NCBI GenBank assembly: GCA_048939465.1
Contig: JBHLPL010000044.1
Coordinates: 1 to 14,707, forward strand
Direction of reading: 5' to 3'
Source of the DNA: Promethearchaeota archaeon
GTDB taxonomy: Archaea > Asgardarchaeota > Odinarchaeia > Odinarchaeales > JBHLKK01
Length of the DNA: 14,707 nucleotides
In this document: piece by piece, positions 2,157-7,351 of the stretch
Layout: each line of letters begins with the position of its first letter
Position numbering within the stretch: the first letter of the stretch is position 1
Position numbers and translations under genes: made by a program
The notes under the pieces: model-generated
What the model was told of the DNA's origin: nothing
What the model saw: only the letters and a program-made list of their open reading frames with translations
The model's database searches: none

Positions 2157-2250
2157 TGGAGCCTCGGAAGGGATTTGAACCCTCGACCAACGGCTAAATG
2201 GTGATCTTGCACTACCATGCCGCCGCTCCACCGGGCTGAGCTACCGAGGC
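2157..2250 (-). tRNA. trnT-GGT: tRNA-Thr(GGT) with a canonical 17-nt 37/38 intron (2196-2212)
   Basis: Reverse complement GCCTCGG...CCGAGGC-T-CCA (U73 fits Thr). Anticodon arm GCGGC-ATGGTA|A-GCCGT. BHB helix ATGG/CCAT, bulges TA|G and TT|A. Mature length 77 nt. Confidence 0.93.
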
Positions 2251-4199: not shown

Positions 4200-4365
4200 G
4201 CGAGGGTACCCAAGCTAGGTCAAAGGGGCGGGTACAGTTGATATAACTGTCGCTAAACTTAAGATCCCGTAGCGTAGAAAGCTACTAGATATCCTAGGCT
4301 TGTGAAAGCTTTCGAGGGTTCGAATTGATAGGTTTCTCATCACGAAAATCCCTCCCCTCGCACCA
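4200..4365 (+). tRNA. trnL-TAA: tRNA-Leu(TAA) with three introns: 30/31 (4233-4256), variable arm (4278-4307), 59/60 (4325-4348)
   Basis: Acceptor GCGAGGG/CCCTCGC-A-CCA. Removing 24+30+24 nt gives an 88-nt tRNA with CGGGA-CTTAAGA-TCCCG, variable arm AGC-GTAG-GCT and GAGGG-TTCGAAT-CCCTC. BHB helices GGCG/CGCT and TTCG/CGAA are clean; the variable-arm helix is relaxed. Confidence 0.88.
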
Positions 4366-4454
4366 CTTCTGGCCTTTTTCTAGAGAAAGATTATTCTAGC
4401 ACAAAATTTCTTATTTGTATGCCACTCATCTGTTTTCATCTGAGGGATCCAACC

Positions 4455-5588
4455 ATGTCCGGATATAAGGTAACTCCCTGGGAAGTTGAAGGAGTAGTCG
4501 ATTATGATAAGCTTACTGAAGAGTTTGGAACACAGAAAATCGACCAAGACTTGCTTCAAAGAATAAGCAAGCTTACGGGCGAAGTTCACTTATACCTTAG
4601 AAGAGGATTCTTCTTTTCTCATAGAGATCTAGACAAGGCGTTGGACGCTTACGAGTCTGGGAGTGGATTCTTCCTGTACACAGGGCGAGGTCCCACTGGC
4701 GATATGCATCTCGGTCACCTAATTCCCTTTCTATTCTGCAAATGGCTTCAAGACAAATTCCAAGCAAACCTGTACGTACAGATAACAGATGATGAAAAAT
4801 TCCTTCATAAGAAACCCCTATCTTTGCGTAGGACCCGGAAGTATTCCTATGAAAACATTTTAGACATAATTGCCTGTGGTCTTAATCCCGACAAGACTTT
4901 CATTTTTCAAGACAGTGAGTATACAAATATCTACCCTCTTGCCACAAAAATCGCAAAACGGATAACCTTTTCTACTGCCAAGGCAGTGTTCGGTTTTACG
5001 AGTCAGACTAATATTGGTATGATCTTCTTTCCAGCAATTCAAGCTGTACCATGTTTCCTTGAAAAGAAACAATGTCTAATTCCTGCTGCCATTGATCAAG
5101 ATCCTTATTGGCGAATACAAAGAGATGTGGCGCCAAAGCTTGGTTATAAGAAAACTGCTGCAATACATAGTAAATTCGTGCCCAGTCTAGAAGGTCCAAA
5201 GGGTAAGATGAGTGCCAGTAAGAAAGAGACCGCAATCTATCTGACTGATACGCCCAAAGATGTGAGAATGAAAATACAAAAACATGCTTTCACTGGAGGT
5301 CAGCCTACTGTAAAGGAACAAAAGGAAAAAGGAGGAAATCCGGACATATGTACTGTCCAACAATGGCTTTCGATATTCATAGAACCTGATGATGAGGCCG
5401 TAAAAGAACAGTATATACGCTGCAAACAAGGGACGCTTCTCTGTGGAGAACACAAGGAACTACTCGCAGAGAAGCTAAGTGCTTTTCTGAATGGACACCA
5501 AAGGCGACGGGAGGACGCCAGAGAATTGGTTGAGACGTTTAAGCATGAAGGAAAATTGGCTCAGACGATGTGGGTCAAGAAGTGGTAG
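4455..5588 (+). CDS. trpS: tryptophanyl-tRNA synthetase (archaeal/eukaryal type)
   Basis: VTPWEVEG, LYTGRGP, HLGH (HIGH), ITDDEKFL, CLIPAAIDQDPYWR, KMSAS (KMSKS), HAFTGGQ. Start at ATG 4455; the ORF track gives 4419. Confidence 0.97.
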   Translation: MSGYKVTPWEVEGVVDYDKLTEEFGTQKIDQDLLQRISKLTGEVHLYLRRGFFFSHRDLDKALDAYESGSGFFLYTGRGPTGDMHLGHLIPFLFCKWLQDKFQANLYVQITDDEKFLHKKPLSLRRTRKYSYENILDIIACGLNPDKTFIFQDSEYTNIYPLATKIAKRITFSTAKAVFGFTSQTNIGMIFFPAIQAVPCFLEKKQCLIPAAIDQDPYWRIQRDVAPKLGYKKTAAIHSKFVPSLEGPKGKMSASKKETAIYLTDTPKDVRMKIQKHAFTGGQPTVKEQKEKGGNPDICTVQQWLSIFIEPDDEAVKEQYIRCKQGTLLCGEHKELLAEKLSAFLNGHQRRREDARELVETFKHEGKLAQTMWVKKW

Positions 5589-5602
5589 ACTAAGGCAACA
5601 AG

Positions 5603-5612
5603 TTTTTTAAAT
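5603..5612 (+). promoter_or_regulatory. putative TATA box of tRNA-Met
   Basis: TTTTTTAAAT 26-35 nt upstream of tRNA position 1. Confidence 0.5.
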
Positions 5613-5637
5613 TATGAATAAGTGATAGTATAGGCGC

Positions 5638-5824
5638 GCCGAGGTGGCTCAGCCTGGTTAGAGCGCCGGACTAAGAACGGGCGATACTCATAATCTTAGA
5701 AGAATCGGGGTTCAGATGAGCCATCCGGAAACGGATGGTACAGAGGGATCATGCGCCTGAAGTCGCGGGTTCGAATCGTCCTGAGAACTCTTCTCTTGGC
5801 GAGACAGGCCCGCCCTCGGCACCA
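5638..5824 (+). tRNA. trnM-CAT: elongator tRNA-Met(CAT) with four putative introns: 30/31 (5670-5685), 37/38 (5693-5722), 45/46 (5731-5761), T-loop 59/60 or 60/61 (about 5776-5807)
   Basis: Acceptor GCCGAGG/CCTCGGC-A-CCA (GCC start fits elongator Met, not initiator or Ile2). Removing 16+30+31+32 nt from 187 nt gives a 78-nt cloverleaf: CCGGA-CTCATAA-TCCGG, AAGTC, GCGGG-TTCGAAN-CCCGC. Confidence 0.85.
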
Positions 5825-5916
5825 ATTACCACTTCTTCTAATCAAATATTTTATATTTGTTAAATATTTAATATGCTCATGTCCAAGAGAGTCTCAAAAA
5901 TTTGGGGTGTCGGGCA

Positions 5917-7161
5917 ATGGGCTATACGTTCTTGACACTCGACGATGTAAACGTTTCTGGCAGAAGTGTCCTAGTTAGAGTAGACATTAACTCTCCGATT
6001 AGTCCCAGAAATGGAAAGATTCTGGACATCTCTCGAATGAGAGCAATACAAGACACACTTAATGATTTGAAACCTGCAAGAGTTGTGCTTCTGGCGCATC
6101 AGAGTCGACCCGGCAAAAGTGATTTCACAACGCTTAGGCCGCATGCTAAGGTCCTCAGGACGCTTACAGGCGGTCGTGTAAGGTTTGTTGAGGATATCTT
6201 TGGACCTACGGCAAGAGATGCGATTAAATCGACCAACATCGGTGAAATCTTACTTCTGGAAAATGTTCGTTTCTATTCCGAGGAGAATATAGAGGTTCCG
6301 CCAGAAAACTTGGTCAAGACTCACTTGGTTAGGATACTGTCTCCGTATTTCGATTTGTTTGTAAATGATGCATTTCCTGCCGCGCATAGGTCTCATCCAT
6401 CGTTGGTGGGATTTGCAGAGGTTTTGCCGACAGTAGCAGGACGTGTTATGGAACGTGAGTTGAACGCCCTAAACAAGAGTCTGAATCCAGATAGACCCTG
6501 TGCTTTTGTTATTGGTGGAAGTAAGGTCTATACAAAACTTAAGATCATCGAAAACATATTGAAGAATGGTAAGGCTGATAAAATCCTTGTTGGAGGCCTT
6601 TTGACACACATCTTCCTTCAAGCTGTTGGCAGAGATATTGGCAAGGTCAATGAGAAAGCTGTGGCAGAATACGGAAAACTCTTGGACCACGCTAAAAAGC
6701 TTATTAAAAAGCATGAGTCTGTAATAGAAATCCCTACAGATGTTGGCATTGACAAGGATGACGAAAGAATTAATATTTCCACCGACGAGCTACCGTCAGA
6801 TCACCAGATCTTGGATGTCGGTCCAAACACGGTTGATAAATATATAGATATCATTAACGCTTCTCAAACTGTTGTTGCAAACGGACCTTTGGGCGTTTTT
6901 GAAAGAAACGATTTTGCCTTCGGAACCAAGAAGATAGTTGAAGCCATGGCTACACACAATGAAACTACTATTGTTGGCGGGGGCGAATTAGGGGCTCTTA
7001 TCTACACTCTTGGGCTTGACAGTAAACTGAGTCATGTGAGTACAGGTGGCGGTGCAACAATATCTCTGCTCTCTGGTGAGCAATTGCCGGTGATTGCCGC
7101 TCTAGAACGTGCGTCCAAAAGATTCCGACAAGCAACCCGCAAAAAACTTAAAAAAACTTAA
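5917..7161 (+). CDS. pgk: phosphoglycerate kinase (archaeal type)
   Basis: LVRVDINSP, LAHQSRPG, LLENVRF, FVNDAFPAAHRSHPS, GGSKV, VANGPLGVFE, HVSTGGGA. Start at ATG 5917. Confidence 0.97.
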   Translation: MGYTFLTLDDVNVSGRSVLVRVDINSPISPRNGKILDISRMRAIQDTLNDLKPARVVLLAHQSRPGKSDFTTLRPHAKVLRTLTGGRVRFVEDIFGPTARDAIKSTNIGEILLLENVRFYSEENIEVPPENLVKTHLVRILSPYFDLFVNDAFPAAHRSHPSLVGFAEVLPTVAGRVMERELNALNKSLNPDRPCAFVIGGSKVYTKLKIIENILKNGKADKILVGGLLTHIFLQAVGRDIGKVNEKAVAEYGKLLDHAKKLIKKHESVIEIPTDVGIDKDDERINISTDELPSDHQILDVGPNTVDKYIDIINASQTVVANGPLGVFERNDFAFGTKKIVEAMATHNETTIVGGGELGALIYTLGLDSKLSHVSTGGGATISLLSGEQLPVIAALERASKRFRQATRKKLKKT

Positions 7162-7219: not shown

Positions 7220-7351
7220 GCCCCGGTGGCTTAGCCCGGTAGAGCAGCGGACTTGTAGGTCACGTTAGGCTTGGCTAAGAAATCCGCCGATTAGTGGTAA
7301 TTTACCATCATTAAGCGGAAGTCAAGGGTTCAAATCCCTTCCGGGGCTCCA
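7220..7351 (+). tRNA. trnT-TGT: tRNA-Thr(TGT) with two introns: 37/38 (7258-7281) and 45/46 (7290-7320)
   Basis: GCCCCGG/CCGGGGC-T-CCA. Anticodon arm GCGGA-CTTGTA|A-TCCGC. BHB helices CTTG/TAAG and CCGC/GCGG. Mature length 77 nt. Confidence 0.92.

Follow-up and report, generated by a model that had tools for sequence, protein, structure and literature searches.

A maximum of three introns in an archaeal tRNA gene is stated by Kanai 2015 and in the tRNAscan-SE 2.0 paper (2021), but recent work on Asgard archaea has overtaken this figure. In Valentin-Alvarado et al. 2024 (PMC11291895), Supplementary Data 4 includes columns for an "intron 4", with four introns in a Freyarchaeia tRNA typed "Ile2 CAT" and four observed in the tRNA-Trp (CCA) of Atabeyarchaeia-2, and a preprint of October 2026 (10.64898/2026.10.13.758758) counts "up to five in a single gene" among the Freyr-, Jordi- and Atabeyarchaeaceae. 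Here we describe a tRNA-Met(CAT) gene with four introns, located at positions 5638-5824 (+) of a 14,707-nucleotide (nt) stretch of DNA, referred to below as the window, from an archaeon of the order Odinarchaeales. The initial annotation of the window took three introns as the reported maximum, a fair account of the older literature that is now out of date. Its suggestion that the gene is possibly of record-level fragmentation does not stand, given the Asgard genes just cited, the presence of the same four-intron gene in public Odinarchaeum genomes, and an initiator tRNA-Met gene with five or six introns in the same genome. We consider it very likely that the locus is a functional elongator tRNA-Met(CAU) gene, probably the archaeon's only one, and that its four bulge-helix-bulge (BHB) introns are processed by EndA and RtcB to give a 78-nt tRNA.

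The window is contig C88 of a 1.96-Mb metagenome-assembled genome (MAG; here G000) of 152 contigs that is 91% complete and has 43% G+C. The order is represented by only seven species genomes, including two more from the same genus (G001 and G002) and four from a second family (Odinarchaeum), namely Odinarchaeota J65_bin.29, the HHBFW-2 bin, Odinarchaeia RPA3 and the closed genome G003 (1,418,269 bp). Three of the Odinarchaeum tRNA-Met genes are identical to genes on Candidatus Odinarchaeota / Odinarchaeia records. Comparison was extended to the complete genomes of Atabeyarchaeia-1 (G017) and Atabeyarchaeia-2 (G027), both listed as "same phylum" as G000. A scan of the genome collection with the pattern ATCCGGAA..GTCGCGGGTTC was too loose and gave about 120 mostly random bacterial matches, from which three usable Odinarchaeota loci were obtained. 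DNA of the stretch is present in mangrove and sediment metagenomes; a metagenome scan with a two-gap pattern that required introns 2 and 3 gave 0 matches.

Gene model and conservation

When the five exons (Table 1) are joined they form a 78-nt tRNA-Met(cat), in which ARAGORN, run on the spliced sequence, finds no stem mismatch. The cloverleaf has stems of 7, 4, 5 and 5 bp, T8, T33, A37, the T loop TTCGAAG, A73 and an encoded CCA. Introns make up 109 of the 187 nt (16 + 30 + 31 + 32) and lie at 30/31, 37/38, 45/46 and 59/60 in standard tRNA numbering, which is offset from the raw positions because the D loop has 10 nt. The initial annotation had the exon coordinates, intron positions, Met cloverleaf and intronic share exactly right; the helices and bulges that it quoted for introns 1-3 are all present, and the four rounds of cleavage and ligation that it foresaw follow from the gene model. 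In its unspliced form the locus is detected neither by ARAGORN nor by the Rfam tRNA model (E up to 10). The A/T-rich box upstream is a possible archaeal TATA element, and its position fits an archaeal promoter.

Table 1. Features of the tRNA-Met(CAT) gene, its upstream region and strain differences within its introns (window coordinates).
Feature	Position	Strand	Remarks
A/T-rich box TTTTTTAAATTAT	5603..5615	+	23 nt upstream of gene; read from sequence
Exon 1 (32 nt), acceptor 5' strand and D arm, positions 1-30	5638..5669	+	32/32 identical in four Odinarchaeum species
Intron 1 (16 nt), at 30/31	5670..5685	+	full hBHBh' motif
Exon 2 (7 nt), ACTCATA, positions 31-37, CAT anticodon	5686..5692	+	invariant in all orthologues
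Intron 2 (30 nt), at canonical 37/38 site	5693..5722	+	BHB motif
Exon 3 (8 nt), ATCCGGAA, positions 38-45	5723..5730	+	identical in Odinarchaeum
Intron 3 (31 nt), at 45/46	5731..5761	+	relaxed HBh' motif
Exon 4 (14 nt), positions 46-59	5762..5775	+	13/14 identical to Odinarchaeum
Intron 4 (32 nt), at 59/60 in T loop	5776..5807	+	degenerate central helix
Exon 5 (17 nt), position 60, T-stem 3' strand, acceptor 3' strand, A73, CCA (5822-5824)	5808..5824	+	16/17 identical to Odinarchaeum
Strain differences, intron 1	5674 A>C, 5675 G>A	+	in intron 1 loop
Strain differences, intron 2	5699 deletion, 5702 G>A, 5707, 5710 G>T	+	variant contigs
Strain differences, intron 4 (seven sites)	5776, 5781, 5787 A>G, 5788, 5789, 5790, 5805	+	variant contigs

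The spliced sequence folds as a class-I tRNA whose anticodon is CAU, and ARAGORN calls it tRNA-Met(cat). It is not an initiator: judged by an A1:U72 pair and three G:C pairs at 29-31:39-41, it has instead G1:C72 and the anticodon stem CCGGA/TCCGG. Contig C63 carries the true initiator gene, which has A1:U72 and CGGGG/CCCCG. Two orthologous loci in Atabeyarchaeia (L008 and L007) have exactly the coordinates of "Met CAT" genes in Supplementary Data 4 of PMC11291895, where the tRNAscan-SE 2 isotype models typed them as Met with scores of 88 and 82.8.

Another intact elongator tRNA-Met gene, together with the lack of a spliced product of this locus, would, according to the initial annotation, have undermined its reading; no second gene was detected in G000 or in the closed G003 among the detectable tRNAs. 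Amongst 31 acceptor/T-arm candidates in G000, the locus at 5638-5824 is the only one that can be parsed with a CAT anticodon, and a scan of G000 for a contiguous CAT anticodon arm followed by a T arm gave nothing credible. ARAGORN reports 25 tRNAs in G000, none with CAT, and the 33 Rfam tRNA hits in G003 do not include a CAT elongator. This is probably the only copy of the elongator tRNA-Met gene in the genome. The ARAGORN calls for G003 (loci L157-L186) include a tRNA-Ile(tat) but lack an Ile2(CAT). Either a tRNA with anticodon UAU decodes AUA in Odinarchaeum, or the call is a mis-parsed intron-containing gene.

The gene is well conserved in its exons but not in its introns. The four Odinarchaeum species have introns at the same four positions, and 76 of the 78 exon nucleotides are identical between the two families, the only differences being at T-loop positions 57 and 60. 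Intron identity between G000 and Odinarchaeum is about 53-69%, and intron lengths differ. A similar pattern is seen among strains. Contigs of four runs, under four studies other than the likely source, tile positions 5500-5950, although the runs pair as X5/X6 and X7/X9 and are possibly only two independent data sets. A single 194-nt piece covers 5635-5828 with only 4 differences, all of them intronic. Two strain variants were found at the locus, and a DNA form lacking an intron was not seen. The 13 variable sites itemised within the gene all fall in introns, for which the chance by length alone is (109/187)^13, or about 9e-4. The changes in intron 2 shift its inner helix yet retain 3 bp, and the change at 5787 in intron 4 retains a G-U pair. 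The assembly, for which the initial annotation sought confirmation from reads, is thus upheld by recovery of the locus in contigs from other studies and in four Odinarchaeum species.

Splicing motifs and proposed processing

BHB motifs were scored as four exon nucleotides and a 3-nt bulge, cut after its second base, paired with the four intron nucleotides that precede the 3' bulge. Two opposite 3-nt bulges, whose predicted cut falls after the second nucleotide, are found at all four introns, and each has at least one flanking helix of at least 2 bp. Intron 1 has the central helix CGCC/GGCG (4/4 pairs), bulges GGA and ATA, and a 3-bp outer helix GAG/CTC. Intron 2 has CTCA/TGAG (4/4), bulges TAA and CCA, and an inner helix of TCT/AGA plus GAA/TTC; its outer helix is the 5-bp anticodon stem, which becomes available after removal of intron 1. 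In intron 3 the central helix is CCGG/CCTG (3/4), with bulges AAA and AAG and an inner helix of 2+4 bp. Intron 4 has TTCG/AGAC (2/4) with bulges AAT and AGG, the 5-bp T stem as outer helix and a 4-bp inner helix CGTC/GGCG. The junctions of introns 1-3 can slide by up to 3 nt with an unchanged product, and the central helix is paired only in the register chosen by the initial annotation. In the preprint 10.64898/2026.10.13.758758, three of four central pairs define a relaxed class; by its criteria introns 1 and 2 count as canonical and intron 3 as relaxed, with intron 4 below relaxed.

The two weaker introns belong to position families typical of this lineage, because introns at 45/46 and 59/60 recur in many G000 tRNA genes. 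Introns at 45/46 of a similar length class (about 28-42 nt), with 3' ends of the form ..AAN in which the junction precedes N, occur in at least nine other G000 tRNA genes, and 59/60 introns in at least five others, where the homologues have a perfect TTCG/CGAA helix. The same perfect helix is found in the 59/60 introns of other Asgard tRNA-Met genes, and the helix of intron 4 is therefore a degenerate derivative of it. The similar ends of 45/46 and 59/60 introns across isoacceptors suggest position families like those in Thermoproteales.

The motifs of introns 1-3 draw on overlapping nucleotides. That of intron 1 takes in the 3' strand of the D stem as well as positions 26-28 and exon 2's CTC, that of intron 2 uses CTCA of exon 2 and the anticodon stem, and that of intron 3 uses CCGG at positions 40-43, which is also part of the outer stem of intron 2. 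The three motifs are thus mutually exclusive, and since they cannot form together the precursor must refold between cuts. In constrained ensemble folding of the full precursor, the motif of intron 1 is the cheapest to form (5.7 kcal/mol), followed by those of intron 3 (7.5), intron 4 (9.6) and intron 2 (16.5). The value for intron 2 drops to about 4.4 kcal/mol only once introns 1 and 3 are removed, and that for intron 4 is constant.

We propose that the gene is transcribed as a precursor of about 190 nt with four protein-spliced introns of the BHB type. Each intron would be cut by a two-subunit, (alpha-beta)2-type EndA and the exons joined by RtcB, giving the 78-nt tRNA. In the folding model, introns 1 and 3 would leave before the canonical intron 2, and the T-loop intron 4 would be independent of this order.

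The enzymes for such a pathway are present. G000 has two EndA paralogues (204 aa on contig C90 and 191 aa on contig C139), each with the N-terminal domain PF02778 and the catalytic domain PF01974. The 204-aa protein matches the C-terminal (catalytic) half of fused EndA models; the 191-aa protein matches the N-terminal half and, weakly, beta-subunit models. An (alpha-beta)2 EndA with a broad-specificity L1 loop has been described in Asgard archaea (Kaneta et al. 2018), and the G000 pair appears to fit this type, a subunit arrangement that we infer from the profile matches. There are also two RtcB genes. One of them lies in a 973-aa open frame (contig C31, 2961-5708, -), where about 1.4 kb separates the two parts of the Pfam match (profile positions 1-57 and 45-426), a pattern expected from an intein or another insertion.

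The 3' part of the 37/38 intron (5706-5720, ..ATCGGGGTCAGATGAG..) is conserved across distant Asgard classes (L003, L007, L008 and L019), which is unusual for an intron; only the last 7-8 nt of this region are explained by pairing with the anticodon loop. Two candidate elements around exon 3 were rejected. A C/D-box sRNA spanning intron 2, exon 3 and intron 3 (Rfam sR9, 5709-5762) has E = 6.6 and 13 bits, compared with a gathering threshold of 36. The sequence taken for its "C box" belongs to the canonical intron, being the conserved 3' end that pairs with the anticodon loop, and the distance of the CTGA to the junction differs in Odinarchaeum. The stable hairpin CCATCCG-GAAA-CGGATGG, seen around exon 3 in the minimum-free-energy fold, was not retained as a functional element, being weakly conserved in Odinarchaeum and absent in one species.

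Alternative readings of the locus

Several points weigh against the reading of a functional, sole elongator tRNA-Met gene. No RNA run is listed as holding the locus among those searched, so expression and splicing of the gene are predictions. The motif of intron 3 contains one C-U mismatch and lacks an outer helix, and that of intron 4, with 2/4 central pairs, fails even the relaxed 3/4 rule of 10.64898/2026.10.13.758758. The orthologue was not found in G001 and G002 of the same genus, genomes that are 78% and 82% complete and hence uninformative on absence. The searches for a second copy are blind to genes interrupted in the D arm or acceptor stem and to split genes, and the MAG is 91% complete. 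The assignment to Met rather than Ile2 comes through orthology to published automatic calls. Finally, a variant contig of X5/X6 has four un-itemised differences in 5628-5658, so that exon 1 of this strain is checked only in part.

Some of these points would be accounted for if the locus were a decaying or non-functional copy, in which introns 3 and 4 block maturation, the working tRNA-Met gene being in the unassembled 9%, split or more disrupted. The incomplete central helices of intron 4 (2/4) and intron 3 (3/4) and the incompleteness of the MAG are in keeping with this, and heavily disrupted genes do escape our scans, as was first evident from the initiator gene. Decay is nevertheless hard to reconcile with exon identity of 76/78 between the two families and 78/78 among Odinarchaeum species alongside diverged introns, or with itemised strain differences that all fall outside exons. 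Moreover, Odinarchaeum keeps the gene despite equally relaxed motifs at the same sites, and no other CAT elongator is found among the detectable tRNAs of its closed genome, so we regard decay as unlikely. It is very unlikely that the gene encodes a tRNA-Ile2, in which CAU would be modified to agmatidine and read AUA. The anticodon alone cannot separate Ile2 from Met, PMC11291895 lists the Freyarchaeia CAT gene with four introns as Ile2, and the G000 scans found no separate Ile2 gene. However, direct orthologues in two Atabeyarchaeia genomes are typed Met and their stems match, the Ile(GAT) genes found in relatives have a GGGCCC acceptor stem as opposed to GCCGAGG here, and G000 would be left without an elongator Met gene.

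A different gene model is offered by the intron solver, in which exon 1 extends to 5676 and is followed by one 46-nt intron (5677-5722), giving a three-intron class-I tRNA with anticodon AAG. This parse has a mismatch-free cloverleaf, fewer introns and a 5' junction central helix CTAA/TGAG (3/4). The solver is very permissive (16,107 parses for the locus) and forces class-II tRNAs into class I, and was used to list alternatives only. Two of the three anticodon bases of the parse (5673-5675) are changed in a co-occurring strain, by 5674 A>C and 5675 G>A. No orthologue can be read in this way, whereas ACTCATA is invariant. Its helix is also weaker than those of the CAT parse, which has 4/4 pairs at both junctions, and four Leu tRNA genes are read elsewhere in G000. 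Archaeal Leu tRNAs are class II and, to our knowledge, tRNAs with A34 are not used in archaea. We give this parse very little credence. It is a spurious product of the start of intron 1, ACTAAGAA (5670-5677), which resembles the anticodon-loop segment ACTCATAA that follows; the resemblance is not shared by Odinarchaeum and may hint at how the insert of intron 1 arose. There is next to no prospect that a chimeric or mis-joined contig created the apparent insertions: the window does come from a MAG of 152 contigs, but the contigs from other studies tile the locus, including the 194-nt spanning piece, and the same architecture is found in four other species, one with a closed genome. A functional elongator tRNA-Met gene with four introns thus remains the preferred reading.

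Other tRNA genes, intron gain and comparison with known systems

Fragmentation is widespread among the tRNA genes of G000. According to rough counts with our home-made solver, nearly all recognised genes have one to three introns and only Gly-CCC has none; an example is Trp-CCA (C41, 19870-20064, -), with 195 nt and 3 introns. The window has five tRNA genes (497-601, 2157-2250, 4200-4361, 5638-5824 and 7220-7348). The initial annotation likened intron 4 to a T-loop intron of a tRNA-Pro, but the gene at 2157-2250 (-) is not Pro. By default ARAGORN mis-parses it as tRNA-Pro(tgg); it is read here as a tRNA-Thr(GGT) that has an uninterrupted T arm and an ordinary, canonical 17-nt 37/38 intron (central helix ATGG/CCAT, 4/4). 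The comparable counterpart of intron 4 in the window is instead found in a 162-nt class-II tRNA gene at 4200-4361 (+), which was missed by Rfam and ARAGORN and is read as Leu(TAA). Its 59/60 T-loop intron (4325-4348) has a perfect TTCG/CGAA helix, and a further intron (4233-4256) interrupts the anticodon stem on its 5' strand, immediately 5' of nucleotide 31, the site also used in tRNA-Met.

The initiator tRNA-Met gene (C63, about 4419-4640, -; L151) is more fragmented still. It has five introns, at 20/21 (42 nt), 37/38 (16 nt), 45/46 (23 nt), 59/60 (30 nt) and 71/72 (33 nt), each with a 4/4 central helix, and a spliced product of 78 nt. Its orthologue in G002 has the same five, and those in Odinarchaeum lack the 59/60 intron. 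Splitting the D-loop insert around a conserved TCAGG would raise the count to six; the motif of the first sub-intron is good in six of six orthologues (3-4/4) and that of the second is poor (1-2/4). A 77-nt intron at the 3' end, reaching the downstream CCCCGCTACCA, was considered and rejected, as the 33-nt 71/72 intron with its 4/4 helix explains the 3' end. About 40 nt downstream of the initiator 3' end there is a second copy of the acceptor 3' end with CCA (CCCCGCTACCA or CCCCGCTGCCA; L151, L152-L156). It is preceded by a small hairpin and conserved in both genera, and may represent either an alternative 3' exon or an att-like duplication.

The elongator tRNA-Met orthologues differ in how many of the introns they contain. 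G009 has the 37/38 intron only, Atabeyarchaeia-2 has 30/31 and 37/38, and Atabeyarchaeia-1, G037, G032 and G022 have 30/31, 37/38 and 59/60. The 30/31 intron is present in most Asgard orthologues, and in tRNA-Met the 45/46 intron was, in the genomes searched, seen only in Odinarchaeales. Within that set, this distribution shows an intron added at 45/46 in Odinarchaeales to an older set at 30/31, 37/38 and 59/60. As the exon blocks are contiguous in the compact Asgard orthologues, they are fixed without reference to any splicing motif.

In Odinarchaeum, the other family of the order, the tRNA-Met(CAT) gene shares the four intron positions, the encoded CCA and the relaxed 45/46 and 59/60 motifs, with introns of 14-15, 35-36, 22-24 and 30-31 nt. 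Compared with the G000 gene, its central helix is weaker at 37/38 (2-3/4) and stronger at 59/60 (3/4). We found no publication that describes this four-intron gene. The Atabeyarchaeia tRNA-Met(CAT) is the same gene, with matching acceptor stem, D stem and anticodon arm and one base difference in the D loop. It has no intron at 45/46 in either genome, and the 59/60 intron of Atabeyarchaeia-1 has, unlike that of G000, a perfect TTCG/CGAA central helix.

What the locus adds is the lineage itself, Odinarchaeales, a dated gain at 45/46, micro-exons whose motifs overlap, and, at one junction of an apparently essential gene, a central helix that is markedly degenerate. The word "Odin" was not found in the main text of 10.64898/2026.10.13.758758. 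We put forward, as a tentative and rather doubtful proposal, that Odinarchaeales are a further centre of extreme tRNA fragmentation, undiscussed in recent surveys, in which the only elongator tRNA-Met passes through mutually exclusive folds and the 59/60 intron is cut despite 2/4 central pairs. If this were true, the Odin-type EndA would read the spacing of the two flanking helices, or have a helper, rather than recognise a paired central helix. On a practical level, a gene unseen by ARAGORN and Rfam would make Odinarchaeales, including the closed Odinarchaeum genome, seem to have no elongator tRNA-Met. Such genes are in part missed by tRNAscan-SE (10.64898/2026.10.13.758758), and incomplete tRNA sets have been noted for Asgard genomes, with Odinarchaeota LCB_4 among those analysed (Kaneta et al. 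2018). The 7- and 8-nt exons, overlapping motifs and degenerate helices of the locus also provide natural substrates for studying the reach of EndA specificity and the order of splicing.

Multiple BHB introns at canonical and non-canonical sites are also known from Thermoproteales, for example in Pyrobaculum calidifontis tRNA-Glu(UUC) and P. islandicum tRNA-Pro(UGG), where a broad-specificity (alpha-beta)2 EndA is needed and motifs form only after removal of a neighbouring intron. These archaea belong to another phylum and their genes have at most three introns; in the literature cited on the three-intron genes we found no description of internal exons of 7-8 nt. The genes of Freyarchaeia, of Atabeyarchaeia-2 and of the preprint likewise have at least four short introns, many of them non-canonical, and many are missed by standard tools, but they come from other classes and are other genes than the tRNA-Met of Odinarchaeales. 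The general picture, already drawn for other Asgard classes by the 2024 and 2026 papers, is unchanged, and the gene described here is an extreme case of the tRNA gene fragmentation reported for those archaea.

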